37,109 bases of DNA, taken from assembly GCA_929200455.1 (NCBI GenBank), contig CAKMZR010000001.1:1-37109 (forward strand), given 5' to 3'. The translations under genes were made by a program, and so were the position numbers. Origin of the DNA: an uncultured Alphaproteobacteria bacterium. GTDB taxonomy: Bacteria; Pseudomonadota; Alphaproteobacteria; CAKMZR01. Positions 16,333 through 30,927 of the stretch are shown piece after piece. The number at the start of each line of letters is the position of its first letter. Position 1 is the first letter of the stretch. A model generated the notes under the pieces. It made no database searches. It had not been told where the DNA came from and was given only the letters and a program-made list of their open reading frames with translations.

Positions 16333-19300
16333 ATGGCTTTTACACACGACTCCACAACTTTTGATATACATTACGATGACACAGATGATAACGACACGGC
16401 GGCGTTGCTTGCCTATATAGCGGCGACTCCTGCACTTCAACCTCACTGGGTATATGCTGACGGTGTTTTGACGACTGGTAAGGTTTTACGCAATGCGTCG
16501 GATTGGAGGGGGAAAATTACACTCCATAGGTTGAATTTACGGTTCGTCGGTTCTGGTGGTTTTGGGGCAAGGAACAGGACTGCGAGAGCAAACAAAATTC
16601 ATGCAACCTATTGCACGATAAGATATGAGGGGGATTCTTATACATCTGCGGGTTTTGATGGGGTGTCAGGGCAAGATGTAGACCTTTCCTTTTCAACTTT
16701 TACTAGTCTGGCAAGCGGTTTGGCGAGTAATCAGGATTTGGTGAAGTTTGTCAGAAATGAGAGGGTGGGTGCGACTATAAAGATGGACGGGGCTTCATTC
16801 ATTCAACTCGGAAATGCAACCGTAAGTTTTAGGCTTAATCCGAACGCGGCGACCATCAAGGGGTTGTCGCTTGAAAATAAAAGTGAGAGCGGTGCCTTTC
16901 AACTTGCATTGGGGACGGAAAACAACACCAAAGGCACGTTTGAGGATTTGACGTTGAGGGGTATAAGTTCTTTAGGTAACATTGGTGGGGCAGGTTCAAA
17001 AAATGCAACTTCGGAGATAGATTTTATACGTATGACAACCGATGTCCGAGATTTCAATTTTCCCGCTGGTGGTCAAGGAGGAAACAATTATATTGATTGC
17101 AGTTTTGACGGTCATGCCTTGCCTGCCAATTTCAGAGGGAGGTACCACTATGATACGGCTTTGAGTGAGGTAGACCAATACAATCGCTTTTTTGCATCGT
17201 ACGATGCAAAAGTGATTGATACAACCTTGAATGGTATTGTTGGTGTGAAGGTGGTGGTGCATAGGTCAACAAATGAAGAACAATTTGATGTGTCAACGGC
17301 GAGCGATGGGACGATTACAACTCAAAGGGTGTTAATTGCTGAATTCACGGGGCATAATGTTGCGGTGACTTATTCAGATTTCAAGATAGGTTTTTTGAAG
17401 TGGGGAAAATCAATTGTGACGGGGGTGAAGGCGTTGCAAAATGGCAAGATTGAAGATGTTCAAGTTTTGATTGATGACGGCTTCATCGTGGAGCAAAACC
17501 AAGGAGTTGTGAGGGCGAGGCAGTTTGTTGCATCGGCGAATGATGCTTATGAAGGGTTAATCTCAACATTTATGGATGCTTACGATGGGGTTAATACCGT
17601 CATACCAGTGACGGTTGAGGCGGGAGATATTTTATTCTTTGGAACGCGTAAGGTCATTTTAGACCCTGGAGCGTTGTCGGTGATATATTTATCAGTGACG
17701 GAGGTCGTCCTGAAGGTCAATTCTGCAACCAGAAGCTTAAACATCAATGTGCGGACTGAGGGGGTTTATGAAGAGGGGGGCAGACCTCTTCCATCTTCTG
17801 GCGGCGTTGATGCATCGGCACATTCACCAATAAACACGGGGATAGTGATAGCCAGCAATACCGACCTCATTCTTAAGTTTTATGGTGTGGACGAGGTGGA
17901 CGTGTCGGATACGTTGGTAAATGCCAGAAATCTTGGGAGTACGGTGGGGCGGTTGTTTGCGGGGGTGATAGCGGGCTTTAGAAAAGACGCGAGTCAATCA
18001 ACGTCAGAACACCCCATTTATTTTAGAACAAAGCGATCGGAATGGGCGAGTAGACCACAGATACACTTTTCATACACAAACGAAGGTGTGACGTCTGTAA
18101 AATCTGTTGATTTGGTGACAAGCGGAAATTCACAAGAAATTACGTTGACGCAATCAGAGCGGATTGCCACGATTGAGGCGGGGGTAGCACAACTTAAGAG
18201 TGAAATTGACTTCATCTTCTCTCTTGTCTCGAGAACGGCGTCGGTGACGTCACACCATAAGGTGTCTACGGGTGGTGATATAAACGTGATAGGCGGCTCG
18301 GCAGTGCCAGATGCAACCGCAGATGGTGATATTTTGGACGGCTATAGGATTTTGAAGGGGACAAAGACGGGTGATTTAATAACGGCAGATTCGTCGGGTT
18401 CTATAGAAATCAAAATCTGGTTCAAAAAGTCGGATTATGTTGACGGATTCTGGTTTCCTTCACTCACCCAAACCATCCCAGAAGCCACGCTTTCAAATGC
18501 AATAATCAAACTTTATGGTGAAGGTGAGGGACATTCTCCCACAGAAGTTGCATCTGAGGCTTTGGGTGCGGAGTCTGCGGGGGTGTTTTCTTTTGAAGCG
18601 TTCAATTACGATCCCTTGAAGCCAGTTTATAGGGATTTTTTCTTCGGAAATGCAAACGTGAGAAGCATAACCGTTGCTGTGACGGGAACACCAAATGCAA
18701 CCGCTGGTGTGTATAAACTCAATGCGAATCCACGCGTGGAGAGGCGGGGTGATGTGGTGACGAGGACGAATCTGCAGGCGGTGAATTTGGTGCAGGTCGG
18801 CGGGCTAACCACAACAAAGGCGGAGTTGACTTCTGGCGGCGGCGGTGGTGGGGGCGGTGGAGAGGTCTTGTATGAAGAAAGACAACTTAAAAGTGTGAAT
18901 GGCAACCTGCTTACCTTTGCGGCAAAGACGGGTGAGGTGGCTGACACATTCCATAACAGGTCAATCTTGGTTGAAAAAGACAACCGTCGCGAGACCTATT
19001 TGATACAGGCGGCAAGTGTACAATCTGGAGATGTAACAATCCACGTTAATGCCAATCGGCAGGGTCTGGCGGCGAATGATTCGATTAAGATTTATGATAG
19101 GCTGGACATGCCTTCACAACACAAAATCGACACAAAAACTGCGGGATTGACGACGGCTGAGACGGAGGCGGCGGTGCAGGCAGGTCTCTTATCGGCTCCG
19201 AATACAACCAAGGCGGGTTATAAGTTGGATTTGACGACAACTTATATTGAGGACGCGGTGAAGAAGGCGATGGATGAATTGTCGGATACGGTAAAGAACA

Positions 19301-19539
19301 CCTATAAGTTGTCTTTGTCGACTACTCAGATTGAAGATGCGGTGAAGGCAGGTCTGTTGGCGGCACCCGATACAACCAAGGCGGGTTATAAGGGGGCAGG
19401 AGGTGAGGCGGCGACGGTGGATATAGCTGCGATAGCGGCGGCGGTGGTGGAGGCTGTTTTGGCATCGGCGGTTGCAAAAAAACAAGATGTTGAAGACAAC
19501 AGACAGTTGACCGATCAGATGTTCATCGATCAGGAGTAA
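16333..19539 (+). CDS. Tail fibre / tail spike protein
   Basis: 1068 aa, the largest ORF. Has an internal Gly9 linker and C-terminal 28-aa tandem repeats. Assigned by position and architecture. Confidence 0.65.
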   Translation: MAFTHDSTTFDIHYDDTDDNDTAALLAYIAATPALQPHWVYADGVLTTGKVLRNASDWRGKITLHRLNLRFVGSGGFGARNRTARANKIHATYCTIRYEGDSYTSAGFDGVSGQDVDLSFSTFTSLASGLASNQDLVKFVRNERVGATIKMDGASFIQLGNATVSFRLNPNAATIKGLSLENKSESGAFQLALGTENNTKGTFEDLTLRGISSLGNIGGAGSKNATSEIDFIRMTTDVRDFNFPAGGQGGNNYIDCSFDGHALPANFRGRYHYDTALSEVDQYNRFFASYDAKVIDTTLNGIVGVKVVVHRSTNEEQFDVSTASDGTITTQRVLIAEFTGHNVAVTYSDFKIGFLKWGKSIVTGVKALQNGKIEDVQVLIDDGFIVEQNQGVVRARQFVASANDAYEGLISTFMDAYDGVNTVIPVTVEAGDILFFGTRKVILDPGALSVIYLSVTEVVLKVNSATRSLNINVRTEGVYEEGGRPLPSSGGVDASAHSPINTGIVIASNTDLILKFYGVDEVDVSDTLVNARNLGSTVGRLFAGVIAGFRKDASQSTSEHPIYFRTKRSEWASRPQIHFSYTNEGVTSVKSVDLVTSGNSQEITLTQSERIATIEAGVAQLKSEIDFIFSLVSRTASVTSHHKVSTGGDINVIGGSAVPDATADGDILDGYRILKGTKTGDLITADSSGSIEIKIWFKKSDYVDGFWFPSLTQTIPEATLSNAIIKLYGEGEGHSPTEVASEALGAESAGVFSFEAFNYDPLKPVYRDFFFGNANVRSITVAVTGTPNATAGVYKLNANPRVERRGDVVTRTNLQAVNLVQVGGLTTTKAELTSGGGGGGGGGEVLYEERQLKSVNGNLLTFAAKTGEVADTFHNRSILVEKDNRRETYLIQAASVQSGDVTIHVNANRQGLAANDSIKIYDRLDMPSQHKIDTKTAGLTTAETEAAVQAGLLSAPNTTKAGYKLDLTTTYIEDAVKKAMDELSDTVKNTYKLSLSTTQIEDAVKAGLLAAPDTTKAGYKGAGGEAATVDIAAIAAAVVEAVLASAVAKKQDVEDNRQLTDQMFIDQE
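17190..17211. repeat. 22-bp perfect palindrome TTTTGCATCGTACGATGCAAAA (copy 2, inside tail-fibre gene)
   Basis: Identical to 4949-4970 and again in frame as FASYDAK. Confidence 0.95.
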
Positions 19540-19543
19540 AAAA

Positions 19544-19936
19544 ATGAGCAAAGAGAGAATCGTGGGAGTGGGTACAGGGGGGACGGGGACAGTACCTTCA
19601 GGTCAGAAAATACACCATTCTCAAGTAGAGGGGCTGGACGGCAAAATAGACGCGATCGTTGATCCGAAAATATTGGCTGAAACAACGGCGAGGCAGAGTG
19701 AAGATGCAACCTTGAATAGTCGTGTTGATGCGGAAACATCGGCACGTATAGCGGCAGACAACACCCTCACAACAAACTTACAATCTGAGGTTGTGGCGAG
19801 GACGGCGGCGGTGGCAACGCGGCGGGATAAGGTGGTGTCGGTGACGGGGCTGGTGGTCAGGAAGAAAAAGGCAGACGGCACTTTTTATGATATGACGAGG
19901 GTGGTGGGAGGAACACCAACCTTTTCCGATGTATAA
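19544..19936 (+). CDS. Tail-fibre-associated protein with coiled-coil repeats
   Basis: 130 aa with repeated E-T-(T/S)-AR-x-x-(E/A)D-x-x-L heptad-like motifs common in fibre shafts. Confidence 0.5.
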   Translation: MSKERIVGVGTGGTGTVPSGQKIHHSQVEGLDGKIDAIVDPKILAETTARQSEDATLNSRVDAETSARIAADNTLTTNLQSEVVARTAAVATRRDKVVSVTGLVVRKKKADGTFYDMTRVVGGTPTFSDV

Positions 19937-19942
19937 TTTTTA

Positions 19943-19972
19943 TTGACAAGGGTGGCTGGGGTGTGCTAATTT
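19943..19972 (+). promoter_or_regulatory. Candidate promoter TTGACA-18 nt-TAATTT
   Basis: Perfect -35 and a G-rich spacer like the early cassettes. Lies in the 205-bp gap between the late and early modules. Confidence 0.45.
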
Positions 19973-19979
19973 GTGAGCG

Positions 19980-20027
19980 GAGGGTTGCGTTTTGCTTTTT
20001 CTGACCAATTCGTTTTTCGCAACCCTC
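19980..20027 (+). other. 10-bp stem hairpin (GAGGGTTGCG / CGCAACCCTC) with 28-nt U-rich loop
   Basis: Read directly. Begins at the predicted start site of the 19943 promoter and has no following T-run. Confidence 0.6.
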
Positions 20028-20041
20028 ATACCTCCCATCAT

Positions 20042-20141
20042 AAAAAATGCATTTTATTCAAAAAAAGAATTGACAAAGTAAAATGCGGGCGGTATCGTCA
20101 TGGCGTTGAGGGGGAAACAAAAACAGAAAGGTCAGGTAATA
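20042..20141 (+). promoter_or_regulatory. Early promoter+leader cassette, copy 1 (-35 at 20070, -10 TATCGT at 20093)
   Basis: TTGACA-17 nt-TATCGT, then TGAGGGGGA...GAAAGGTCA...ATG. Aligns with five other copies. Confidence 0.75.
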
Positions 20142-20699
20142 ATGGTACAGGAATTTGAAAGTAAAGATGAGTTGAAGGCGTATCTCGACGAGATTGTCCC
20201 TTTTTATTACAACGACGGCGGGCGGTCGGAATATTTCAAGGCGAAAGGCGTCGGCGATTGCGTTTTGAGGGCGTTGTGCATTGCCACGGGGAAGAATTAC
20301 AAAGAGGGGTATAATGAGTTGAAGAAATATTGTAAAAATCCTTATCCGATACGGAGGCAGACCGAAAAGCATTGTAAAGAGTTGGACTCGTGGAAAAAAG
20401 ATGCAAAAACTTTAGTGAGGGATGGTCTCAGCGACAAGGTGGGGTTGCATTTTCTGCAGTTGTGGAGTGGTGGGAAATTCGTCAAGACGGGAAAGACCAC
20501 CGTTTGTGATCCGAAATTGCAAAAAGGTGTACACGTTTTGTATTTGAGAAAGCATTGGGTGACGGTAGTTGATGGGGTCTGGTTGGATTCGTGGGATAGC
20601 AGAGTGAAAACACCCTGCGTTGTACCAGGTATAGGCATTTTGAACTGGCGGGAGCCAGTAATCAAGCGAGTTATGACTTGGGTTGGAGGAGAAGTGTGA
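20142..20699 (+). CDS. Early protein, possible papain-like Cys/His peptidase fold
   Basis: ATG 20142 follows the cassette (ORF-track start 20100 lies inside the leader). Candidate triad GDCVLRA ... KHWVTVVDG ... LDSWD. Function is a weak guess. Confidence 0.55.
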   Translation: MVQEFESKDELKAYLDEIVPFYYNDGGRSEYFKAKGVGDCVLRALCIATGKNYKEGYNELKKYCKNPYPIRRQTEKHCKELDSWKKDAKTLVRDGLSDKVGLHFLQLWSGGKFVKTGKTTVCDPKLQKGVHVLYLRKHWVTVVDGVWLDSWDSRVKTPCVVPGIGILNWREPVIKRVMTWVGGEV

Positions 20700-20980
20700 T
20701 GTTGAAGATTTACAGAGATTTCAAGCGTTTGGAAAAAGTGATGAGGGGGTTGTATTTTGAAGATGACGAGGTTTTACAAACGGTTGAAAGTTTTGGCTTT
20801 GAGGGGAATAAGAGGGAGGGGGATGGAATGAAGGAGGTGAATGTGACGAAGGGGAGGAGGAAGATAGCGTGCTTTGCCTTTAAAAAAGATGGAACCTTTT
20901 ATTTTTCTGTTTTAAGTCTTGATTTTCAATCTGAACTTTTAGAAAAGACAGAATATGGGGGAGGATATAGGTCATGTTAG
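20699..20980 (+). CDS. Hypothetical early protein
   Basis: ATG 20699 in a TGATG overlap, GGAGGAGAAG upstream; 93 aa. Confidence 0.55.
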   Translation: MLKIYRDFKRLEKVMRGLYFEDDEVLQTVESFGFEGNKREGDGMKEVNVTKGRRKIACFAFKKDGTFYFSVLSLDFQSELLEKTEYGGGYRSC

Positions 20981-21246
20981 GTCAGAGAGAAGAAGTTTTG
21001 AAGAGGTTTGAAGACCTCCAGAAAAAAATCAAAGAAGTTAATGCGGGCATACAGCAGAAGGATTGGTTGATTTTAGAGATAGATGCGGCTGGGTTTTCTT
21101 CTGAAGACAAAAATTCATCAGTCGATGTGATGTGGCAAGGTGAGGTGGTGGGGACAATAGTGGTGAGGTGGGTAAAGGACGTTGACTATTGCTACGTTGA
21201 ACCAGACTTCACAAAAAAAATGAATAATCTTCAAAAAAGTTGTTGA
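20974..21246 (+). CDS. Hypothetical early protein
   Basis: 90-aa ORF whose 3' end (..KKMNNLQKSC) runs into cassette copy 2. Confidence 0.55.
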   Translation: MLGQREEVLKRFEDLQKKIKEVNAGIQQKDWLILEIDAAGFSSEDKNSSVDVMWQGEVVGTIVVRWVKDVDYCYVEPDFTKKMNNLQKSC

Positions 21247-21312
21247 CAGTGCAGAATAGGGGTGGTAATGTAAGGTCATGAGGGGGAGAAAAACAAACGA
21301 AAGGTCAAGCAA
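21213..21312 (+). promoter_or_regulatory. Early promoter+leader cassette, copy 2 (-35 at 21243, -10 TAATGT at 21266)
   Basis: TTGACA-17 nt-TAATGT with a TGn context and the conserved leader. Confidence 0.8.
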
Positions 21313-21630
21313 ATGGAAAATATCAAACTTACACCAAAAATGATGACAGCTTTTATAAACGAAGTTGAAGCCAGAATCAAAGCAGGAGAAGAAGTAACAA
21401 TCGTCACGAGAAAGGGCAGTGACCCTTTTGAGAGGGTTGCAAACTTCAAAGAAGAAGCTCGCAACGGCGGCATCATGTTTAAAGAGGGATGGGGATTGCA
21501 CAGCTTGCATCATCGGGGCATGAGAAAAATAAGTGAAAATGAATACTGGCAAATCGCCAAAAGCAGAAAATCTCCTGATTTCTGGACAACCAAGTTTATA
21601 TTTAGAGGTGAAAATGCAAATCAATCTTAA
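21313..21630 (+). CDS. Hypothetical early protein
   Basis: 105-aa ORF starting right after the cassette leader. Confidence 0.6.
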   Translation: MENIKLTPKMMTAFINEVEARIKAGEEVTIVTRKGSDPFERVANFKEEARNGGIMFKEGWGLHSLHHRGMRKISENEYWQIAKSRKSPDFWTTKFIFRGENANQS

Positions 21631-21916
21631 GAAGTTCAGGGTGAACAGCGACTACCAAATAAAAGTGGCGGAGGCTGTGTTGAAGTTTTATCATAGGCGG
21701 ATGATCGAGGAGACGGGGGGCATCGACAACGCAATCATGGTGTTCATTTTTGATACAAAAACGGAGATGTGGACAATGAATATTGCCTTTTTGTTGGCAG
21801 ACGGTAGAAAAGTCAACGTCCGACCAATGCGATTCCGTGAGGGGTGGCACGGCGTGGATCAGGTTGCATCTTTGAATGTCAATTACCCACCGCAAAGCAA
21901 CCTTGCGTTTGTCTGA
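21614..21916 (+). CDS. Hypothetical early protein
   Basis: ATG 21614 with AGAGGTGAAA upstream (ORF-track start 21533 overlaps the previous gene extensively); 100 aa. Confidence 0.5.
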   Translation: MQINLKKFRVNSDYQIKVAEAVLKFYHRRMIEETGGIDNAIMVFIFDTKTEMWTMNIAFLLADGRKVNVRPMRFREGWHGVDQVASLNVNYPPQSNLAFV

Positions 21917-21917
21917 G

Positions 21918-22244
21918 ATGAAAAGACAACCAATCGTCAGGACCCTTTTTCCTTATGTAGGAGGAAAAAGCAAGGCATTAAAACACATCATCGACTACCT
22001 CCCTCAAGAAGGCAGAGTGATTTCACCGTTTTTAGGGAGCGGCAAGATTGAATTTGTACTCGCCAAACGCGGCGTTGATGTCTACGGCTATGATGCGTTT
22101 CCTGAACTTGTAAACTTCTGGTTGTGCGTGAAAGAGGACGCGGAGAAGGTTTCCGATTTGGCAGTTGGTCTGGGATTTCCTAACAAAGAAAAGTTTTTGC
22201 AGATAAAACGCGATTTGGGGGATTTTAAGCAGAGGTTATTGTAG
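21918..22244 (+). CDS. dam: DNA adenine methyltransferase (Dam/D12 class), N-terminal fragment
   Basis: LFPYVGGKSK and SPFLGSGKIEF (AdoMet-binding region motifs). Ends at TAG 22242. Confidence 0.7.
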   Translation: MKRQPIVRTLFPYVGGKSKALKHIIDYLPQEGRVISPFLGSGKIEFVLAKRGVDVYGYDAFPELVNFWLCVKEDAEKVSDLAVGLGFPNKEKFLQIKRDLGDFKQRLL

Positions 22245-22263
22245 GGGAAATGTTGAGAGAAAT

Positions 22264-22632
22264 TTGACTGAAAATTGGGCAGAGAGAATAAAGAGTTTTT
22301 CCTTTCCTCATAATTTACATGTGAAACACCAAGATTTTATAGAGACGTTGTCAGGTCATTCTGGTGAGTTTTTTTATTGTGACCCTCCGTACTATAAAGG
22401 CGGCGGTTATTATGGGGTGAATGGCGAATATTGCAACGGTTTCAACCACGAGATGTTGCGTGATTTGTTGTCGAAAGAGGGGCTGTGGGTGCTGAGTTAT
22501 GGCGATTGTGAGGAGGTGAGAGATTTATATACCAATTTCAGGTTGATTGAGTTGAAAATACCATACGGAAACAGAGGGCAGGTAGGCAGAGAACTTTTGA
22601 TTTTCGGTGACGACGTCAGGTTTCTATTATAA
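22264..22632 (+). CDS. dam: DNA adenine methyltransferase, C-terminal fragment in the +1 frame (frame open from 22207)
   Basis: Catalytic DPPY motif (FFYCDPPYY). No independent ATG or SD; the ORF-track start is TTG. Confidence 0.65.
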   Translation: MTENWAERIKSFSFPHNLHVKHQDFIETLSGHSGEFFYCDPPYYKGGGYYGVNGEYCNGFNHEMLRDLLSKEGLWVLSYGDCEEVRDLYTNFRLIELKIPYGNRGQVGRELLIFGDDVRFLL

Positions 22633-22729
22633 AAAATGAATAATCTTCAAAAAAGTTGTTGACACAGCAGAAGAGGGGTGGTAATGTAAGGGCATGAGGG
22701 GGACAGAGTAAAGCGTAAAAGGTCACATT
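22631..22729 (+). promoter_or_regulatory. Early promoter+leader cassette, copy 3 (-35 at 22659, -10 TAATGT at 22682)
   Basis: Same architecture; the leader is more diverged (TGAGGGGGACAGAG...AAAAGGTCA). Confidence 0.75.
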
Positions 22730-23371
22730 ATGAACACATCACCAACGACAGATCAGTACGGAGAGTTGCAGAGGGCTTTTGACTTCTTCAACGAGAAGTT
22801 GTTTGACAATCAACTACCACAAGTCATGCTTACCATCACGGACTCAAAAAGGTTTGTTGGCACGTATTGCAAAGGTCTTTTTTATAAGGGCGGCGAAAAC
22901 GAGAATCGTCTTGATGAAATATGCTTTAATGCGTCAAGCTTTGAAAATGGGGGTGAAATGGAGATTTTGAAGACGTTGGTTCACGAGCAATGCCATCAGT
23001 GGCAGTGTCATTTTGGCTTAAAGCCACCAAAAAGCAATCATCATAATAAAGAGTGGGGTGCAAAAATGGAGTCGGTTGGGTTGATTCCGTCTTCAACTGG
23101 CAAAGAGGGTGGGGATAAAACGGGTAGAAATATGAGTGAGTACGTCGAGAAGGGTGGTCGTTTTGAAAGGTTTGCAGAAGAATTTATAAAAGAATTCAAC
23201 CTTGATTGGTTTGCGAGAGATATGTCACGGAAGGGGAGTGCAAAAAAGGCGAATAAAATCTGCTATTCTCACCTTTGCGAGGTGACTTGTGAAGAGGTGA
23301 AGTTTTGGGGGAAGCCAGAAATCAACGCAATTTGCGGCGATTGCGGTGAAAGATTCGAGGAGAAAGAGTGA
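22730..23371 (+). CDS. SprT-like zinc metalloprotease domain protein with C-terminal Cys cluster
   Basis: HExxH motif in LVHEQCHQWQCH, an SprT-like N-terminus (FNEKLFDNQLPQV) and the cluster CYSHLCEV...CGDCG. Confidence 0.65.
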   Translation: MNTSPTTDQYGELQRAFDFFNEKLFDNQLPQVMLTITDSKRFVGTYCKGLFYKGGENENRLDEICFNASSFENGGEMEILKTLVHEQCHQWQCHFGLKPPKSNHHNKEWGAKMESVGLIPSSTGKEGGDKTGRNMSEYVEKGGRFERFAEEFIKEFNLDWFARDMSRKGSAKKANKICYSHLCEVTCEEVKFWGKPEINAICGDCGERFEEKE

Positions 23372-23429
23372 TTTTTTTCATCGTACGATGCAAAAAAAGG
23401 GGTAGGGGTAATCAACTGGGGCGGGAGAA
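23372..23429 (+). promoter_or_regulatory. Composite element: T7-CATCGTACGATGC-A7 palindrome followed by the G-rich tract GGGGTAGGGGTAATCAACTGGGGCGGGAGAA
   Basis: ~90% identical to 30928-30983. Fills the gap between the stop at 23371 and ATG 23430. Confidence 0.7.
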
Positions 23430-24089
23430 ATGAGTAGTAGGATGAGTGAAAGGCTAGAACATCTAACAAAGAGGTTGGGTTCTCGGGGGTTGGAGCTGTG
23501 GGTTAGGAAGGGGCGTATGGGGACTATTAAAGGTTGTGAAATGGTGCTGTTTATCGACGGCAAGCATAGCGGTTCAGTATCGCGTGACCTGAGCGAAGAC
23601 GCTGTTTTCAGGGCAGGGAACCTAAACCTAGAACTTGTTGCGGAACTCTACGAAACCCTATTACGGCAGGCAAACCCAGAGGAGAGCCAAAATTGGATAA
23701 TTTACCACCACTTCTGCCAAGACCTCCCAGACTCAGAACCCGAGCATTCCTACTCTGACCCCATTGACATCGCTGGAGGTGTCGGGCGGCTATACGGAAA
23801 GGAGAAGAAGACTAATGTTGTTCGTATTTGGATAAATGAAGATCGACTCCCTAATTTTATCAAAGAAAACTTCGGCGATGCCCCCCATTGGCTTCTAATG
23901 CCTCTAGTGGAGCGGTGGGGGAAAGCGTACTTTTACCTTCCTCAGACACTCGATTGCGACTTTGTCGCTCGTGAAATCGTGGAGGGGGTGTTCTGGGGAA
24001 GTAAAAGGTATGGTGCTCGTTTGGTCTCCTGTCGAGAAGGCGATCGACCGCACCTGTATATTTTTTTCCGTCAAGGGAAAAAAGACTAA
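23430..24089 (+). CDS. Hypothetical protein, compositional outlier (C-rich codons)
   Basis: 219-aa ORF with GGGAGAA upstream. Hand counts show + strand C content roughly 2-3 times that of neighbouring genes. Confidence 0.6.
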   Translation: MSSRMSERLEHLTKRLGSRGLELWVRKGRMGTIKGCEMVLFIDGKHSGSVSRDLSEDAVFRAGNLNLELVAELYETLLRQANPEESQNWIIYHHFCQDLPDSEPEHSYSDPIDIAGGVGRLYGKEKKTNVVRIWINEDRLPNFIKENFGDAPHWLLMPLVERWGKAYFYLPQTLDCDFVAREIVEGVFWGSKRYGARLVSCREGDRPHLYIFFRQGKKD

Positions 24090-24105
24090 TTTGAGGAGAG
24101 AAAAA

Positions 24106-24462
24106 ATGAGCGATGAATACAAACGGCAAGATCGGCAAGTAAATGAGGGGATTGAAAAGGCAGTATCGGCGGCGATGCATGTGCTTTTGTCACCACAGAA
24201 GCCAGAACAACCAGACTTGACTGACGACGAACTCAACCAGAAGGTGAAAAAGCTTGAAGATAGGCTTGAGGATGAGGGGGAACCGATATGGTCTCTTGAC
24301 GACGTCGAGAACGTTGTCGAGGAAGAGGGCTTTACCTTTGGCGATATGGAAGATTTTCAATCAATGAACATCGGCGAGGTCGATATTTTGTATAAGGAAA
24401 AGGTGGTGGCGGCGGTGAATATGGAGAGGGCTTTGACCATCGTCGGCTTTAAGAGGGTGTGA
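24106..24462 (+). CDS. Hypothetical acidic protein
   Basis: ATG 24106 with GAGGAGAG upstream (ORF-track start 23962 overlaps the previous gene); 118 aa, Asp/Glu-rich. Confidence 0.55.
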   Translation: MSDEYKRQDRQVNEGIEKAVSAAMHVLLSPQKPEQPDLTDDELNQKVKKLEDRLEDEGEPIWSLDDVENVVEEEGFTFGDMEDFQSMNIGEVDILYKEKVVAAVNMERALTIVGFKRV

Positions 24463-24567
24463 AATAAAAATGAATAATCTTCAAAAAAAGTGTTGACAAT
24501 GCTCTTTTTCTGGGCTATCCTGCAAATGTTGAGGGGGAGACAAACAAAAAAACGAAAGGTCAAAATC
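24463..24567 (+). promoter_or_regulatory. Early promoter+leader cassette, copy 4 (-35 at 24493, -10 TATCCT at 24516)
   Basis: TTGACA-17 nt-TATCCT, then TGAGGGGGAGACAAAC...GAAAGGTCA. Confidence 0.7.
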
Positions 24568-24843
24568 ATGACAGTTTTTAAAGTTAAGTCAAAAGAAGCC
24601 TCGCACCGCTATATGGGGGCTGGCGAGGTGTTTTTTATCACGCAAGACGACGAGGTTGTTGACTTGGTGTACACGGAGAGGCAGAATCACTTTCCTCTCC
24701 GAAATTTCACCTATACAGACACGCGGGCTATGGGCGATGAGGATTGGTCAATGTTTGTTAATTCTGTCCTGGACGATTGGAAAGAGGCAGGGCATGAAGT
24801 CAAGACGGGCATGGCGGGTTCTTACGAGGTGACAGAAATCTAA
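24568..24843 (+). CDS. Hypothetical early protein
   Basis: ATG 24568 is at the cassette-defined start position (the ORF-track start 24490 reads through the promoter); 91 aa. Confidence 0.6.
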   Translation: MTVFKVKSKEASHRYMGAGEVFFITQDDEVVDLVYTERQNHFPLRNFTYTDTRAMGDEDWSMFVNSVLDDWKEAGHEVKTGMAGSYEVTEI

Positions 24844-24873
24844 TTTTGGGATAAAGGGGTGGGAGAGAGGAAG

Positions 24874-25224
24874 ATGAAGATGATGAATAGGAAAAAGCCA
24901 ATACCTTCAGTTCGGTCAATAATGAATATCCCTTTTGGCACTGAAGACTTTGCAAATTATTGCAAGAAAAAGAGAATACAATTCAAAGTTGTAGAAGTTT
25001 GCGATTTTGAAGAGGTGCGTTTTTATGGGCAGGGGTTGAAGGGCGGCAAGTGGAGGGGTGTTCTGGGCGAATCAAAAACGCGAGGAGTGAAAATCATCAA
25101 AACGATGTACGTGACTGACTACACCAATGAAGAGCATTTCGATCCGCTACCCATACCTTACTCTTTTGATACAACTCACGGTTGTTTTCCTATTGACGGA
25201 AGGGGATTCGGCGATGAATATTAA
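24874..25224 (+). CDS. Hypothetical early protein
   Basis: ATG 24874 preceded by GGGGTGGGAGAGAGG; 116 aa. Confidence 0.55.
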   Translation: MKMMNRKKPIPSVRSIMNIPFGTEDFANYCKKKRIQFKVVEVCDFEEVRFYGQGLKGGKWRGVLGESKTRGVKIIKTMYVTDYTNEEHFDPLPIPYSFDTTHGCFPIDGRGFGDEY

Positions 25225-25507
25225 AAGAGAGATGACGGCAAAAGAGACGGCGGTTTTGAGCAAGGTGGATCACCTTCTTGCAAAAATTGAGGAGGAGGGT
25301 GATGTGATTTGCATTGAGGAGATGGGGGATGATTTTAAAAAACATGGGTTTGAGATTGAGTTTTCAAGTGGGGTTCCTGCGGGGGAAAATGCAACCTATG
25401 GGGTTTATTTTCAGGGAATAGAGGTAGCAGAGTTTGATGTTGAAAATGGCTTTTATTTAGACGGATATTCGGTGTTGGAGGAGGTTTTTCTTGATGGTGA
25501 CGAGTAA
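25214..25507 (+). CDS. Hypothetical acidic protein
   Basis: ATG 25214 (ORF-track start 25127 overlaps the upstream gene by ~100 nt); 97 aa. Confidence 0.5.
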   Translation: MNIKREMTAKETAVLSKVDHLLAKIEEEGDVICIEEMGDDFKKHGFEIEFSSGVPAGENATYGVYFQGIEVAEFDVENGFYLDGYSVLEEVFLDGDE

Positions 25508-25841
25508 AAAAAGAGTGACAATAACTGAAGAGATGCGGCATAAGGTGCGTTTTGCTCTTTATTATCCCATCAGAGGCGGTGGAAAACACGCTATGGTTGC
25601 AAAAGACTTCACGGCATTTACACCTTCTTGGATGAGCAATCTTCTCACGGGGGAATCTGAAGGCAAAAAATGCAATATTGAGCGGATTGAACACATTGCG
25701 GCGAGGACGGGGTATGACCTTGACTTTTTTATGGATGAAAGTCAGAAGGTGTGTATAGCGGAAATCGTCTTGATTTGTGCAAAGGAATTCAACAAGGGGT
25801 TGAAAAGCGGTAATAATCTCAATGAAGGAAAAAAATCATGA
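25494..25841 (+). CDS. Putative helix-turn-helix DNA-binding protein
   Basis: 115 aa. The segment AMVAKDFTAFTPSWMSNLLTGE...IERIEHIAARTGYDLDFF resembles an XRE/Cro-type HTH layout; GGAGGAGG upstream. Confidence 0.45.
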   Translation: MVTSKKRVTITEEMRHKVRFALYYPIRGGGKHAMVAKDFTAFTPSWMSNLLTGESEGKKCNIERIEHIAARTGYDLDFFMDESQKVCIAEIVLICAKEFNKGLKSGNNLNEGKKS

Positions 25842-26701
25842 TTGAAGAAACTGTTGACCATAAAGCAAAAAAGGCGTCTCCGTCTATTTTGTGGCGGGTT
25901 CACACGATGACCCCACGGCAAGCTTTCACGGAGAGTGAGCAAACGGACGACATGTTGCTCGGTTCACTCATCCATAGGTTGATTTTGGATGATGGCACAA
26001 TAAGTGAGAAGTATCATCCTCTTGATTTTGGCAAGAGGCGGGGGACAAAAGAGTGTCAGGCGTTGGAGGAGAGGGGCATCACACCCGTACCACACAACTT
26101 ATGGATGCGTGCAAAGTATGCGGCGTGGGCGGTTGAGTACAACAAAAGGGCAAATAACTTGATAAGGGCGGCGAAGAGGGTCGGTGACGTTGAGAAGAGG
26201 TTGCAAGCTGAGGTTGTATTGGGTGATACGGAGATTGAGGTCAATGGCGTTTTTGACGCGACCTTCACCGATGAAAAGGGCTTTTTTATTGTCGATGTGA
26301 AGACCTGTTCAAAAATGCCACTTAAGAGCGAATTTATCAAAAAAATAAGAGACGGTGGAATGGGGATGAAGGCGGCGGCTTATATGATGATTGCGGATTA
26401 CAACCAACTCAAAAAAGCAGACGGCAACAACTGGTTCGTGTGGATTTTTGTTTCTACAACCTCACCCTTTGAAGTCAGGGTGGTTTATGCGGCGGCTGAT
26501 GATAGAATTATTGCTGAGGGTGAGGTTGATTTTTGGGCGGCGTTAGAGAAATTCCGATGGATACAATCGCAAGATGAAATTCCAGACGAAAGGGGTACAC
26601 ATGACGGTATTGATTTAAGTGAAATCTGGTATGAAAAAGCACTTTACTCAACCGTTGCAAACCAACCAACACAACCAGAAAGCGAGTTTGATGATGAGTA
26701 A
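25838..26701 (+). CDS. PD-(D/E)XK-type recombination exonuclease
   Basis: 287 aa with GVFDAT ... FFIVDVKTC (D...D/ExK arrangement). Lies next to an annealase-like gene. Confidence 0.55.
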   Translation: MIEETVDHKAKKASPSILWRVHTMTPRQAFTESEQTDDMLLGSLIHRLILDDGTISEKYHPLDFGKRRGTKECQALEERGITPVPHNLWMRAKYAAWAVEYNKRANNLIRAAKRVGDVEKRLQAEVVLGDTEIEVNGVFDATFTDEKGFFIVDVKTCSKMPLKSEFIKKIRDGGMGMKAAAYMMIADYNQLKKADGNNWFVWIFVSTTSPFEVRVVYAAADDRIIAEGEVDFWAALEKFRWIQSQDEIPDERGTHDGIDLSEIWYEKALYSTVANQPTQPESEFDDE

Positions 26702-27566
26702 TATTGGACACAACAACCCTCCTGCGGCAGAGTTTGAAGATATTCTACTGGAGATTGAAAACATGAAGATGGGTGGGATTGAGGAGGTGCAACAGGCGGT
26801 GATGGAGTTGAAGGATGGCTTGACTTTGACGGAAGCTGAGTTGAGAGATGAAGAGCATTTAATCCTCAGGGAAGAGGATGTACATGGCTTGAAACAACTT
26901 GAGGTTGATGCATCTCAACTGCTTAAGAACATAAATAATGGCAGAATCGGAATTGACAAGAGGTTGCAATCTTTCAACGATCACAATCGTGGGGAAATTA
27001 AAGAAATAACTCAGCATTTTGAAAAGCTGAAAGGTCAGTTGAGAGACCTTCTTAAGGTTTCACAGCGTCGTGCAGAGAAGGTTGAGAGGGAGCGTCGTCA
27101 AGAGCAACTCAGGGTTGCAGAAGAAGAGCGACGCAAGGCGGAGGAGCAGGATAGGATTTTGCGTGAAAAACAACTCGAAGCACAGAGAAATGCTGATGAA
27201 AAAGAGGCGGCAAAGATTGCAGAAGAGAGGCGGGCGGCAGAAGAGTTGGCGGTGGAAGCAACGGCAAACCTTGGAGTTGCGGCGGCGGCGGCGTCAGAAG
27301 AGGACGTCGTCAAGAAAGACGTGTCTTCATTCTTGAAAGTTAAGAATGATGGGCATATAGTGCTGAGTACGGGTGACGACCTGCGGAAGTTTATGTATGA
27401 AAATCCACATCTGTTTACCCTAAATCAAGCTATGGTTGCAACAATGGCAAGAGAAGAGTTGACAAAACTCAAAAAAGCGGGTGGAAAGTTAGTCGGTGAA
27501 GTGGTCGAGATAGACCTCATTCCTGGCTTGAAAATCAACATCATAGAACAGGACAAAATGCGATGA
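26691..27566 (+). CDS. Hypothetical coiled-coil protein (N-terminal IGHNNPP motif)
   Basis: ATG 26691 overlaps the upstream stop; 291 aa with a central highly charged helix (ERERRQEQLRVAEEERRKAEE...). Confidence 0.55.
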   Translation: MMSNIGHNNPPAAEFEDILLEIENMKMGGIEEVQQAVMELKDGLTLTEAELRDEEHLILREEDVHGLKQLEVDASQLLKNINNGRIGIDKRLQSFNDHNRGEIKEITQHFEKLKGQLRDLLKVSQRRAEKVERERRQEQLRVAEEERRKAEEQDRILREKQLEAQRNADEKEAAKIAEERRAAEELAVEATANLGVAAAAASEEDVVKKDVSSFLKVKNDGHIVLSTGDDLRKFMYENPHLFTLNQAMVATMAREELTKLKKAGGKLVGEVVEIDLIPGLKINIIEQDKMR

Positions 27567-28267
27567 ATAATTCATGGACAAATGAGCAAGAGGAGATGCA
27601 GTCTTCTGTGCCTCAGAAAACTCAACCAAAAAAACAGCCTCTCAAAAAGAAAGAGAGCTCGGCGTTTGACAATGCGACGACGATTGGTGGCTTTGAAAAT
27701 GACGACTCTTGGTTGCAAAAAAGGGAGGAGGTAGAGAGGGCGTATTTTGCTTTTTACAAGATAGGTCAACCCACAAGTGACCTTGATGGGTATTTGCACG
27801 CGGCGGGCGTCGGCTTCATGCAACAGTTTTTGATGGAATTACCATTCGGCAAAAAACAATTCCACGTTGCAAGATTTGCGGGTTCTTACACTCCTATTTT
27901 CTCTTATCACTCAAAACTTGCCTATGCTTTGAATTTACGGGGTGAGGATGGGAGGAAATTGGTCAAGAGGGTAAACTGCAACTTTAAGTATAATGACGAT
28001 GGTGAACCTTTGACGTGCATTGCAACCATAGATACTCATGATGTTGAGGGGTTCGTGGGCTATGAAATCACCAAAACCCTTGCAAAAAGGATGGAGCAGA
28101 ATTCAACCGAGAAGAGCATGTGGCGGCGAGAACCTGAGACCATGTGGGAAAAAACAACCTTGAGTAGAGCACTGGATAGATTGCAAGGGATGCAAGAAAT
28201 CTATGATGAGACGGCGGAGACGTCTTTTGATGTGCAAAATTCAACCAAAAAGCGACCATTCGACTGA
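27563..28267 (+). CDS. Putative single-strand annealing protein (RecT-like)
   Basis: 234 aa. The C-terminal motif MWRREPETMWEKTTLSRALDRL resembles the RecT-family signature; lies in a module with the exonuclease. Confidence 0.45.
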   Translation: MNNSWTNEQEEMQSSVPQKTQPKKQPLKKKESSAFDNATTIGGFENDDSWLQKREEVERAYFAFYKIGQPTSDLDGYLHAAGVGFMQQFLMELPFGKKQFHVARFAGSYTPIFSYHSKLAYALNLRGEDGRKLVKRVNCNFKYNDDGEPLTCIATIDTHDVEGFVGYEITKTLAKRMEQNSTEKSMWRREPETMWEKTTLSRALDRLQGMQEIYDETAETSFDVQNSTKKRPFD

Positions 28268-28275
28268 GAGGGATT

Positions 28276-28596
28276 ATGAGTATATTTAAGAAGCTGTTCA
28301 AAAAACTACTGCCAGACCCCAATAGGATTGATTTTCTTGAACATACCTTTAAAGAGGGTATGGCGTTTTTAGAAATAAAATATAACCTTGAATACAACCT
28401 TAAGACGGGTAAGATGAAGTTGGGGTTGAGTTCAAGGACGGACGGGACGACCGACTTTACGGATAGGGAGGTGTATCTTATACAAAAACTTTTCGCACAA
28501 TGTATCATAAGAAATAGACAAGAAGATGTGGGGGCGATGCGTCTTAAGGTTGAGAAGTGCGGCGATGAGGATAAAGAGGAGAGAGTGTTGCATTAA
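28276..28596 (+). CDS. Hypothetical early protein
   Basis: 106-aa ORF ending at cassette copy 5. Confidence 0.55.
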   Translation: MSIFKKLFKKLLPDPNRIDFLEHTFKEGMAFLEIKYNLEYNLKTGKMKLGLSSRTDGTTDFTDREVYLIQKLFAQCIIRNRQEDVGAMRLKVEKCGDEDKEERVLH

Positions 28597-28693
28597 AAAA
28601 ATGCATTTTATTCAAAAAAAGAATTGACAAGGTGAAATGCGGGTGGTAATGTAAGGTCATGAGGGGGAGAAAAACAAACGAAAGGTCAGATAA
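28597..28693 (+). promoter_or_regulatory. Early promoter+leader cassette, copy 5 (-35 at 28624, -10 TAATGT at 28647)
   Basis: Upstream part matches copy 1; the -10 and leader are near-identical to copies 2 and 6. Confidence 0.8.
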
Positions 28694-29038
28694 ATGGTAG
28701 ATTTGAGAAGTTTTAGGGTACAGCTGTACAAAGAGGAGGCAAAAGATTTATTGTTATATCTGCTGTCTCGTATTTTTCACGAATGGCGGGAGAAATGCCA
28801 CAACCAAAAAAGCTTAGCTTATAAGCTCGGGCGGTTTGGTTTTGTGATGAGCGATGAGGATTTTGTAGGCGAAAAGGTCTTTGATGTTCTTTTCGGCAAA
28901 TGCAGGATTGCAACCATAACGTTAAAGAGGTCGGTGGAAACGGTCGCAGTGCAATATTCTCAAGATGAGGCGGAGTGGGCGGATTTGGAAGAGGTGTCTT
29001 TGGTGGGTTATGAGATTTTTTCTGAGGGAGACGAATGA
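28694..29038 (+). CDS. Hypothetical early protein
   Basis: 114-aa ORF starting at the cassette-defined ATG. Confidence 0.6.
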   Translation: MVDLRSFRVQLYKEEAKDLLLYLLSRIFHEWREKCHNQKSLAYKLGRFGFVMSDEDFVGEKVFDVLFGKCRIATITLKRSVETVAVQYSQDEAEWADLEEVSLVGYEIFSEGDE

Positions 29039-29286
29039 TGGAAAATTGGAAAAAATATATTGTCTATGGGAAGCCTCTCAAGGAAAAAATCAGAGGCATT
29101 TTAGGCGGTGCGGAAAGGATGGGGGTTTATGTTTGCATGAGCAAATATGGACAAGTTTTAGACGTTTTTTCATGCCTTAAAGTCGATGAAATAAAGAGGG
29201 TGACGGGTTCTTCAATCTGTCTGGGCTATGTCTTTTTTGACAAGAAAAGGTGTGTTGTTAAATATCAAACGGGAGAAAAATCATGA
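29035..29286 (+). CDS. Hypothetical early protein
   Basis: 83 aa, ATGA overlap. Confidence 0.55.
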   Translation: MMENWKKYIVYGKPLKEKIRGILGGAERMGVYVCMSKYGQVLDVFSCLKVDEIKRVTGSSICLGYVFFDKKRCVVKYQTGEKS

Positions 29287-29666
29287 CGACGGCGAAGGAT
29301 AAGGCGTTTATTGCCAGATTAAATTGGGTGAGGATGATGGACGGTTTAGTCGATAAGAAAATTGAAACTTTGAAGCGTTATTGGGAGGGCAAGGGGTACA
29401 CTGTGACGTCTTTTGCTTTGGAGTGCGGCAGGAGTTGCGTGCCGTTCACGGTTTGGTCTGAGTACGGCGAAGGTATAGAGGGAAAAGTCTTTTTTAGTGC
29501 GTTTGTCGGGTGGACCTCTCAGAGGAATGGTCTGCCAGTGTTCAGGGTGGATCAGAACGGCGGCGATCTGAAGGGGTGGTATAGGCAAATCAGAGACGAC
29601 GCGTGTTATCACGCAACAAAACATGCGGATTCAGACTTTTTGAGAGAGGAATGTGAAGATGAGTGA
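29283..29666 (+). CDS. Hypothetical early protein
   Basis: 127 aa, ATGA overlap. Confidence 0.55.
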   Translation: MTTAKDKAFIARLNWVRMMDGLVDKKIETLKRYWEGKGYTVTSFALECGRSCVPFTVWSEYGEGIEGKVFFSAFVGWTSQRNGLPVFRVDQNGGDLKGWYRQIRDDACYHATKHADSDFLREECEDE

Positions 29667-29770
29667 TGATAAAAAAATGAATAAAATGCAAAAAAGTTGT
29701 TGACACAGCAGAACGGGGGTGGTAATGTACAGTCATGAGGGGGAGAAAAACAAACGAAAGGTCAGAAATC
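29667..29770 (+). promoter_or_regulatory. Early promoter+leader cassette, copy 6 (-35 at 29700, -10 TAATGT at 29723)
   Basis: Same architecture as the other five copies. Confidence 0.8.
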
Positions 29771-30040
29771 ATGAGCATCACAATCACACTTAATACAAAC
29801 GCAATCCAACAGGACACGGGCAAGGCGGTCTTGGTGAAAATCCCATCGTCAGATTCGGCTTTTTGGATTCCCAAGAAAATGGCTAGAAGCGGAAAGGGTA
29901 ACACCCTCCGTTGTTGGTTCCCCACAGGAAGCTGGGATGTCAGAGTTGTAAGGTTGTCAACCAAGTGTGACAATGCCCAGCAGATGACCTCTCAGGAGTT
30001 GGCAGATGGCTTTTCTGGTTTGGAAGGAAAAGTCAGCTAA
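29771..30040 (+). CDS. Hypothetical early protein
   Basis: ATG 29771 is at the cassette-defined position (ORF-track start 29735 lies in the leader); 89 aa. Confidence 0.6.
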   Translation: MSITITLNTNAIQQDTGKAVLVKIPSSDSAFWIPKKMARSGKGNTLRCWFPTGSWDVRVVRLSTKCDNAQQMTSQELADGFSGLEGKVS

Positions 30041-30440
30041 GTGGGGGCAGGGGTGGGAGGGGTGGGATTTCATTAACAGGAGTGGGAAGAAAAGGACTTT
30101 GACTATGAAATTCGATTATAGAAACAGTGAAAACGGCAAAGGGCTTAAGAGGCTTTTGTCGCACGATGACTCCGAAGCCATCATAACTGCCGCAACAAAC
30201 CATATCCGTATACATGGGGATGGCGGTTATGCTATGGGAAAAGCTATAACTTCTCAACAAAAAGACACCGTCCATGCGGATATGTCACTTGCCGAAAAAG
30301 GTATAGAGGGGGAAATGGCATTGATGGTAAAAACACTTCATCGAGTACTCGACAGAGATGTTGCACTCCGTACAACAGAAGAAATAGATGAAATCGCAAG
30401 ACTAGAGTTTTTGAAGGGAGTGCAATTGGCAGGCAACTAA
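30006..30440 (+). CDS. Hypothetical early protein (start ATG 30006 or ATG 30105)
   Basis: ORF with GGAG 7 nt before ATG 30006. The alternative ATG 30105 lies downstream of the G-rich tract. Confidence 0.5.
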   Translation: MAFLVWKEKSAKWGQGWEGWDFINRSGKKRTLTMKFDYRNSENGKGLKRLLSHDDSEAIITAATNHIRIHGDGGYAMGKAITSQQKDTVHADMSLAEKGIEGEMALMVKTLHRVLDRDVALRTTEEIDEIARLEFLKGVQLAGN

Positions 30441-30493
30441 ACTATAGAGGGAATGGGTCAATAAATAGGGGTGGGAGAAATGAGGATGATGTG

Positions 30494-30925
30494 ATGGCAG
30501 AAGAAGAAGATTGGGACGACGATGTGGAGGAGGAGGCGGGGTTGTCTCGAAGAGAGCAGGCAAAAATGAGACCCGAGGAGGATAAGGGTGTGAGGAATAA
30601 TAAAAGAAAAGCGGAAGAATATGGTGTCTTGATGGCGGCGGAGTGCTTGGAAAAAATGGATTTTGACGAGGCTTGCGAGATGTTTAGGCAGAGATTCGGG
30701 AGAGAGGTTGTAGTGGAGGGGAGTGTAATTTGGGTTTTTGAAAACGGGACGGTTAATGAAATGGTCGAGAAATCGGTAATTATGGCAGGCAATGACATAA
30801 CGGTTCAATCTTGCGAATCGGCAATATGCAAAATCAGGCGTCTTTATAAAGACGGACTTTTGTTGAGGGCGATAAAGTGGAAGAATATCTGGCAGATTGA
30901 CCTGAAGAAGAGGATTGAGCAGTGA
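30494..30925 (+). CDS. Hypothetical protein with acidic N-terminus
   Basis: ATG 30494 overlaps the stop of a 4-codon upstream mini-ORF (TGATG); 143 aa. Confidence 0.55.
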   Translation: MAEEEDWDDDVEEEAGLSRREQAKMRPEEDKGVRNNKRKAEEYGVLMAAECLEKMDFDEACEMFRQRFGREVVVEGSVIWVFENGTVNEMVEKSVIMAGNDITVQSCESAICKIRRLYKDGLLLRAIKWKNIWQIDLKKRIEQ

Positions 30926-30927
30926 TA

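Follow-up and report, generated by a model that had tools for sequence, protein, structure and literature searches.

Why does a stretch of about 100 bp recur six times between the non-structural genes of a small phage, and what does it do there? The DNA analysed here (the window, 37,109 bp; contig CAKMZR010000001.1 of assembly GCA_929200455.1) is a complete or near-complete phage genome. An earlier note on it had described six dispersed copies of a promoter-plus-leader cassette, each running from at or just after the stop codon of one gene to the ATG of the next, and had proposed that they divide the early region into operons. We found that this regulatory repeat is real, clean and well delimited, and that its six units precede six successive groups of non-structural genes. 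The explanation that we favour, with a probability of roughly 0.75, is that the units are six promoters for the host RNA polymerase with tracts resembling UP elements and a shared unstructured leader, and that they have been kept alike by selection and by exchange among themselves.

Occurrence and anatomy of the six units

Both strands of the window were searched for the pattern TTGACA-N17-TANNNT. Exactly six matches were found, all on the plus strand, against a mean of 0.25 and a maximum of 2 in shuffled sequences. A repeat search and a MAFFT alignment delimited six units of about 100 bp each, with 46 invariant alignment columns. When nhmmer profiles were built from the whole unit, and from the upstream tract, the core and the leader separately, each of them recovered exactly six copies; with the whole-unit profile the six had E-values of 1e-20 to 1e-25 and the next match an E-value of 0.28. 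It is clear that all six copies are present where they had been described, each with a perfect −35 hexamer and a spacer of exactly 17 nt, and the −10 hexamers were also as claimed, namely TAATGT in four copies, each after GGGTGG, TATCGT in copy 1 and TATCCT in copy 4 (Table 1).

Pairwise identity was 60-100% inside the units, depending on the segment, and at the background level of 40-55% in the 60 nt on either side. The borders are therefore sharp and the downstream genes are not paralogues; paralogy of the first downstream genes was rejected on this basis. The description of the unit as reaching from stop codon to ATG held for the ATG end of every copy and, at the other end, for four of the six, where the upstream stop lies within a few bases of the unit start, but not for copies 1 and 2. 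Copy 1 begins 106 nt past the stop at 19936, inside a 205-nt non-coding gap, and in the case of copy 2 the upstream open reading frame (ORF; 20974-21246) reads 34 nt into the unit and ends in a TGA (21244-21246) inside the −35 hexamer. Two other details needed correction. The upstream A/T tract had been said to take either of two forms; there are four versions, copy 4 having an extra A and copy 6 reading AAAAATGAATAAAATGCAAAAAAG. Copies 2, 5 and 6 had been called near-identical over more than 60 nt, but the identical run that copies 2 and 5 have in common is 48 nt long, and those that either of them has in common with copy 6 measure 33-35 nt.

The organization of the units resembles that of a host-type promoter, as the earlier note had suggested: all elements for a primary sigma factor (sigma70-type) are present, the −10 in a weak form, together with a UP-like A-tract, which the note had called simply A/T-rich, and a leader that is conserved to the start codon. 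In numbering from the predicted start, a run of A followed by TG(A/C)AT lies at about −63 to −53. The A-tract CAAAAAA(A)G occupies −46 to −38, with a second A-run about 20 bp, or roughly two helical turns, upstream. The consensus of the proximal UP subsite is AAAAAARNR (PMC4132738); the tract of the units (CAAAAAAAG or CAAAAAAGT), located at the canonical −46 to −38, has 6-7 of its 8 specified bases, and by our own count the distal subsite is matched at about 6 of 10. The −35 hexamer is TTGACA and the spacer 17 nt long in 6 of 6 copies, and the four spacers that end in GGGTGG give a TGn extended −10. All −10 hexamers have the form TAnnnT, the T, A and T at the first, second and last positions being kept in every copy. 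Seven nucleotides past the −10 there is a purine; copies 1 and 4 have a G, and in the other four copies it is the A of an ATG. At predicted +3 or +4 follows the invariant GAGGGGGA, then an A/C-rich stretch of variable length, the invariant AAAGGTCA and the ATG. The invariant blocks of the alignment coincide with the A-tract, the −35, the T/A/T of the −10, GAGGGGGA and AAAGGTCA, and the sequence between them varies and contains insertions and deletions (indels).

With the spacer relaxed to 16-18 nt, one extra TTGACA/TANNNT match was obtained in the window. It begins at 19943, in the same non-coding gap as copy 1 and 127 bp upstream of its −35. Together with this site, the six units comprise the only strong −35/−10 pairs in the genome, and nothing comparable was found in its late half.

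From the predicted start to the AUG the leader measures 35-40 nt, of which 70-81% are purines. Folding of the last 36 nt ahead of the AUG gives 0 to −0.5 kcal/mol, compared with −3.3 ± 2.8 kcal/mol for 44 other gene starts, so that the leader is less folded than these (Mann-Whitney p = 8e-4). RNAalifold detected neither a shared structure nor covariation among the six copies (consensus energy −0.6 kcal/mol), the folding z-scores of the whole units ranged from +1.5 to −2.6 with no helix common to the six, and no Rfam family was found in the leader even at E <= 1. The energies of pairing with the ribosome were computed with an assumed common bacterial 16S 3′ tail, CACCUCCUUUCU, which may not be that of the host. 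Calculated in this way, the Shine-Dalgarno (SD) sequence proximal to the start codon, ACGAAAGGU, reached −7.6 kcal/mol, as against −7.4 ± 3.5 kcal/mol for the other genes of the phage. Two further genes, the endolysin gene at 15810 and the putative capsid gene at 7083 (assigned from its location, no family being matched), have GAAAGGT in front of them as well, and because it serves these genes too we regard it as the working SD sequence. A second site at the predicted 5′ end, UGAGGGGGA, pairs more strongly than the proximal one (−10.6 kcal/mol); it lies 34-38 nt upstream of the AUG and no start codon occurs within 5-12 nt after it.

The copies differ from one another in a patterned way. The upstream tract and spacer are of type B in copies 1 and 5 and of type A in copies 2, 3, 4 and 6, the −10 and leader are of type X in copies 2, 3, 5 and 6 and of type Y in copies 1 and 4, and all four combinations of types are present among the six. 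The upstream half of copy 5 contains a 35-nt run identical to copy 1, and its −10 and leader contain a 48-nt run (GGGTGG...AAAGGTCA) identical to copy 2, from which it differs upstream. In the triplet 1/5/2, copy 5 agrees with copy 1 at 13 consecutive informative sites and then with copy 2 at 16, and the switch point lies just 5′ of the −10 (permutation p = 4e-5). The equivalent chimera test for copy 4 was not significant (p = 0.22). Copy 5 is thus a chimera, composed of parts from copies 1 and 2, so that the copies exchange sequence, and this is direct evidence that recombination or gene conversion between units has occurred. The earlier suggestion of cassette duplication or shuffling thus gains direct support.

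The same cannot be said of the division into operons. We found no stem-loop or intrinsic terminator within or adjoining any unit, and between 18 and 37 kb the terminator-like sites numbered 17, compared with 15.4 ± 4.4 in shuffles, which is no enrichment. As the units contain no terminator, the promoters would boost and re-start transcription on one co-directional array and not insulate operons. Transcripts from the upstream units probably read through the downstream units, and the array would then yield nested transcripts.

Table 1. Positions of the units and their elements, all on the plus strand. Types A/B refer to the upstream tract and spacer, X/Y to the −10 and leader; transcription starts and driven genes are predictions.
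Feature	Position	Strand	Type or remark	A-tract	−35	−10	Predicted start	GAGGGGGA	SD	ATG	Genes predicted to be driven
Cassette 1	20042-20141	+	B / Y	CAAAAAAAG 20059-20067 (UP-like)	20070-20075	TATCGT 20093-20098, no TGn	G 20105	20108-20115	AAAGGTCA 20127-20134	20142	ORFs 20142-21246
Cassette 2	21213-21312	+	A / X	CAAAAAAGT 21232-21240	21243-21248	TAATGT 21266-21271, TGn	A 21278	21280-21287	21300-21307	21313	ORFs 21313-22632: two ORFans, split Dam-like methyltransferase
Cassette 3	22631-22729	+	A / X, most divergent leader		22659-22664	TAATGT 22682-22687, TGn	A 22694	22696-22703	AAAAGGTCA ending 22725	22730	SprT-like gene 22730-23371 and next two ORFs
Cassette 4	24466-24567	+	A upstream, unique spacer, Y downstream		24493-24498	TATCCT 24516-24521, no TGn	G 24528	24531-24538	24555-24562	24568	24568-28596, including PD-(D/E)XK nuclease and RecT-like protein
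Cassette 5	28595-28693	+	chimera		28624-28629	TAATGT 28647-28652, TGn	A 28659	28661-28668	28681-28688	28694	three ORFans 28694-29666
Cassette 6	29671-29770	+	variant A / X		29700-29705	TAATGT 29723-29728, TGn	A 29735	29737-29744	29757-29764	29771	29771 onwards, towards helicase and primase genes
Possible seventh promoter, outside the repeat family	19943-19972	+	TTGACA-N18-TAATTT, TGn; without A-tract or leader

Weighing the explanations

If the units are promoters for the host polymerase, the C-terminal domains of the alpha subunits would contact the A-tract at −46 to −38 and region 4 of sigma would bind the perfect TTGACA, and the weak −10 would be offset by a spacer of the optimal length, 17 nt, to which the TGn is added in four copies. 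Transcription would start about 7 nt past the −10, at the purine, and the mRNA would therefore begin with (A/G)U(U)GAGGGGGA. The SD sequence GAAAGGU, 7-10 nt before the AUG, would stay exposed owing to the purine-rich, unstructured leader of about 36 nt, and a 30S subunit might bind to the strongly SD-like 5′-terminal GAGGGGGA, thereby shielding the 5′ end or using the block as a standby site. The similarity of the copies would be kept by selection on these elements together with recombination between copies. The promoter activity of the units, like the labels early and strong that had been given to them, is predicted from the sequence.

Several observations weigh against this explanation. The −10 hexamers are weak, with three of the six positions of TATAAT in TAATGT and four of them in both TATCGT and TATCCT, so that the term near-consensus, which had been applied to the promoters as a whole, is right for the −35 but not for the −10; a consensus scanner reported copies 1 and 4 only. 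The start sites are predicted from spacing only, and the sigma specificity of the host is assumed, as is its 16S tail. The block GAGGGGGA is not rare on this G-rich strand, on which 8 more copies lie outside the units, and its invariance could reflect a role at the DNA level, for example as an operator or through an effect on the initial transcribed region. We tentatively prefer to see in it, by analogy, a ribosome-binding 5′ element that would protect the mRNA or act as a standby site, since SD-like 5′ elements without a start codon are described in a review as stabilising mRNAs (PMC3997798). This analogy is weakened because the nearest relatives of the endolysin are found in phages of Gram-negative hosts, while the best-documented stabilisers come from Bacillus. 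Finally, no related genome on which conservation could be tested was found in IMG/VR, JGI metagenomes, GenBank phages, GTDB genomes or a set of 5.8 billion proteins, the nearest proteins being about 30% identical.

The exchange between copies raises the question of whether the units serve recombination in the first place. It is possible, although we put the chances at distinctly less than even, that they are mainly recombination linkers for the modular exchange of genes, similar to the PeSL cassettes of T4-type phages, with promoter activity as a side benefit; phages that co-infect a cell would, by way of short homologous patches, exchange, lose or gain ORFan modules. Copy 5, a clear recombinant of two other copies, is what such linkers would leave behind, the units flank small groups of genes that are nearly all ORFans, and the ORF upstream of copy 2, which has no stop of its own and runs into the unit, resembles a recombination junction. 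However, the invariant positions map onto promoter and translation elements and not onto arbitrary homology, the identical runs are short (33-48 nt), and no related genome was found that shows insertions or deletions bounded by units. Recombination of this kind would in any case complement the promoter explanation and does not exclude it.

Doubtful, in our opinion, is a more elaborate version, according to which the unit is a self-contained expression module of a phage lineage that has no sequenced relatives. The invariant GAGGGGGA would recruit the 30S subunit to the first nucleotides of each early mRNA, for protection from decay that depends on the 5′ end or as a standby site, and the roughly 100 bp of the unit would at the same time provide the homology by which ORFan modules are shuffled. 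Were this so, the phage, whose host may be Gram-negative, would possess a counterpart of the PeSLs that lacks a terminator and includes an mRNA stabiliser of its own.

It seems unlikely that the conserved parts are operators or RNA targets through which a regulator of the phage, for instance a Cro-like protein or a translational repressor, switches the six units off or on together. Candidate targets are the A/T tract, the inverted repeat GCATTTTA...TAAAATGC that brackets the −35 in copies 1 and 5, GAGGGGGA at +3 and AAAGGTCA. Conservation does extend well beyond what contacts with RNA polymerase usually need, a phage that relies on the host polymerase throughout needs an early shut-off, and the ORF at 25491-25841 resembles, by eye, a helix-turn-helix protein, although it has no Pfam hit. 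Yet no dyad symmetry is common to all six units, the inverted repeat being confined to two of them, no regulator was identified by Pfam or PHROGs, and the A-tract is explained more simply as a UP-like element.

That the ATG at the predicted start of copies 2, 3, 5 and 6 opens a leaderless mini-ORF (MRGRKTNERS...), and that the leader is conserved because it is translated, is highly improbable: its A lies exactly 7 nt past the −10 in these four copies, a spacing typical of leaderless mRNAs, but the frame runs for 21 aa in copy 2, for 5 aa in copy 3 and for 13 aa in copy 5, and in copy 6 it joins the gene in frame; at the corresponding position, shifted by 1 nt, copies 1 and 4 carry TTG, and the copies are separated by indels of 1-5 nt. 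A coding mini-ORF was rejected for this lack of a conserved frame, which together with the indels means that the leader is conserved at the nucleotide level.

Six host-polymerase promoters with a common leader thus remain our preferred explanation, and they would provide a transcription map, with six and possibly seven entry points for the host polymerase, for a singleton phage that is otherwise unannotatable. The cassettes would mark the ORFan groups that are likely to be expressed first. The combination of TTGACA-17-TAnnnT with an A-tract points to a host with a canonical primary sigma factor and not one of the Bacteroidota type. Should the SD-like block at the 5′ end be functional, the unit would represent a compact natural promoter-plus-leader part and another case of ribosome-mediated 5′ protection.

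Genome context and other features of the window

The source record is scaffold COST21-1_SAMEA3913365_METAG-scaffold_14 of the ENA metagenome assembly ERZ23493591. All plausible genes lie on the plus strand, on which G strongly exceeds C; the GC content is about 46%. The region 1-19936 encodes a large terminase of the lambda gpA type, a portal protein of the lambda family, a tape-measure protein, a holin and a GH108 endolysin, and contains a weak match to a prohead protease, slightly under the Pfam cut-off. The region 20142-36544 consists mostly of ORFans; the genes that could be recognised there are those for a helicase, a VapE-type primase, a split Dam-like methyltransferase, a PD-(D/E)XK nuclease and proteins of SprT-like and RecT-like type. 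Most of the ORFs scanned downstream of the cassettes had no Pfam or PHROG match, and the cassettes are in this sense associated with ORFans. No family of RNA polymerases or sigma factors was detected among the ORFs scanned, which were all but about ten small ones of the structural region, and this agrees with a dependence on the host polymerase. For the first early gene, a start at 20142 is better than the 20100 of the source record, because the conserved SD sequence precedes it and 20100 is only 2 nt past the −10.

Searches for relatives of the units and of the phage gave little. Megablast of 19-31 kb against GenBank phages yielded no match. The leader pattern had 84 single chance matches in IMG/VR and no contig there with several copies, the strict promoter-plus-leader pattern had three matches in JGI metagenomes, which were judged by eye to be unrelated chance matches, and the pattern of the upstream A/T tract was absent from IMG/VR. 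The PD-(D/E)XK nuclease from the block of cassette 4 had no homologue but itself among 5.8 billion proteins, a protein search with a 1068-aa protein returned the query alone, and that with the putative capsid gene was without a match. The helicase was at most about 30% identical to any match, and its two best contigs were unrelated phage contigs, one of them with an integrase. In IMG/VR, GTDB genomes and GenBank phages the best matches of the terminase, primase and portal were 23-29% identical; the terminase was at most 29% identical to those of GenBank phages. The nearest relatives of the endolysin belong to phages of Gram-negative hosts.

Several features were noted in the vicinity of the cassettes. 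The gap in front of cassette 1 (19937-20041), which separates the late from the early region, contains a hairpin at 19981-20027 with a 10-bp stem and a U-rich loop of 27 nt, GAGGGTTGCG...CGCAACCCTC. At 20031 there is a CCTCCC, a motif that is rare on this strand (3 copies on the plus strand, 21 on the minus strand) and that can pair with GAGGGGGA of cassette 1 in read-through RNA. An antisense promoter formed by the reverse complement of GGTCAA was considered and rejected, since by our own reading no −10 follows it. Downstream of cassette 2, the methyltransferase of the D12 class (Dam-like adenine methyltransferase) is split between the ORFs 21918-22244 and 22264-22632, the first matching the N-terminal and the second the C-terminal part of the Pfam model; it is either an interrupted gene or a two-part enzyme.

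Near the end of the putative small-terminase ORF, at 351-402, the sequence TTGACA...ATGAGGGGGAGGAGG superficially resembles the cassette core and leader. As a seventh copy upstream of the terminase gene it was rejected (nhmmer E = 7.9), and the GAGGGGGAGGAGG within it is the SD sequence of the large terminase, whose start is more likely at 403 than at 382. A tRNA-Met (CAT) gene at 15714-15788 lies between the holin-like and endolysin genes, and the 52-aa ORF that overlaps it is probably spurious.

Two further repeat families were observed. A perfect or near-perfect palindrome of about 22 bp, TTTTGCATCGTACGATGCAAAA, occurs in four copies (4948-4974, 17188-17213, 23373-23399 and 30928-30954), two of which lie inside ORFs (4821-6494 and 16333-19539) and two between genes. 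Its 14-bp core, GCATCGTACGATGC, has at most one mismatch per copy, and by our own estimate far fewer than 0.01 such sites (<<0.01) are expected by chance. The palindrome is not terminator-like, because its T-run stands before the stem and its A-run after it; a dimeric protein may bind there. The 18-nt palindrome pattern was absent from IMG/VR. A second leader family, AGGGGTAGGGG(T/C)AATCAAC.GGGGCGGGAGAA(A)TG, is found at 23398-23434, 30448-30484 and 30953-30989, directly before the genes at 23430, 30491/30494 and 30997, and has no −35/−10 pair; two of its three copies stand directly after the palindrome TTTTGCATCGTACGATGCAAAA. The family could represent a second class of promoters, dependent on an activator and perhaps used for middle genes, or no more than a ribosome binding region held in common.

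The last 565 bp or so of the window (36545-37109) hold no convincing gene, the sole ORF (36782-36976, 64 aa) looking spurious. At least seven copies of TGTTCAC/GTGAACA, in both orientations, are present at 36574-36994. They may mark an origin of the iteron type or, next to the terminase genes, a packaging (cos) region. A 25-nt direct repeat with one mismatch, AACACCCC[A/C]TTTTTTCGCTAATTTT, occupies the two ends of the window (1-25 and 37085-37109). Because of the mismatch it is not a simple overlap from the assembly of a circular molecule, and it could be a terminal repeat or a repeat resembling an attachment site.

Comparison with known systems

The SAS/ESAS elements of Cluster K mycobacteriophages are 13-bp sequences, GGGATAGGAGCCC, placed 3-7 bp upstream of start codons, with 93 sites listed across the Cluster K phages examined (PMC3203893). 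Like the units, they are conserved motifs in one orientation with an SD core just upstream of the starts of non-structural genes. They differ in having no attached promoter and in serving many more genes per genome, and the leader sequences described here show no sequence similarity to GGGATAGGAGCCC, so that the comparison is one of analogy only.

For the 5′ end of the leader, the STAB-SD of cryIIIA and the polypurine leader of phage SP82 are presented in a review as SD-like mRNA stabilisers at the 5′ end that lack a start codon (PMC3997798, refs 106, 179). The likeness consists in UGAGGGGGA, a polypurine block that resembles a strong SD sequence and lies at the predicted 5′ end, at a distance of 34-38 nt from the AUG and with no start codon in working range. 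The known cases are from Bacillus, where RNase J acts in decay from the 5′ end, whereas the host of this phage is probably Gram-negative; moreover, the 5′ position of the block rests on the predicted start, and its stabilising role is putative.

Strong early promoters read by the host polymerase are familiar from the early promoters of T5, the A1-A3 promoters of T7 and the early promoter consensus of T4. In the host-takeover module of SPO1, an array of strong early promoters is combined with strong ribosome binding sites, as related in a later paper (PMC6873191, citing Stewart et al. 1998). The likeness to such arrays lies in several similar primary-sigma promoters and strong ribosome binding sites in front of small early genes to which no function is assigned, and in conservation that extends past both hexamers into an A-rich upstream region. 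Here, in contrast, the repeat comprises the whole unit including the leader of about 36 nt, copies agree over identical stretches of 33-48 nt, the −10 hexamers are weak, and timing and strength are putative. Early-promoter arrays are the broader known kind to which the units would belong, and because repeated early phage promoters are well known, the units extend a known theme and open no new one.

The closest analogue is found in the PeSL cassettes of T4-type phages, which are stop-to-ATG units of about 100 bp with an AT-rich tract, a sigma70-like promoter, an SD sequence and a stem-loop terminator (Arbiol et al. 2010, PMC2839356; Comeau et al. 2014, PMC4122927). ORFans in plastic regions accompany these cassettes, and recombination between their copies shows in chimeric units, in mini-circles and, between related phages, in insertions or deletions (PMC2839356, PMC4122927). 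A unit of about 100 bp with these first three elements, spanning the gap from stop codon to ATG, was found here as well: in both systems a sigma70-like promoter has an AT-rich tract before its −35, and the 3′ end is formed by an SD sequence; both are also accompanied by ORFans, and a chimeric copy occurs here too (copy 5). The stable stem-loop, often GGGG...CCCC in PeSLs and acting there as terminator or attenuator, is absent from the present units, which therefore do not insulate modules. Instead, their conserved leader carries an SD-like block at the 5′ end. The genomes also differ, that described here being a 37-kb phage with a lambda-type terminase and not a T4-like myovirus, and it has six copies compared with dozens in T4-type phages. 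Since the stem-loop terminator is absent and the genome is not T4-like, the unit is best regarded as partly PeSL-like and not as a member of the family.

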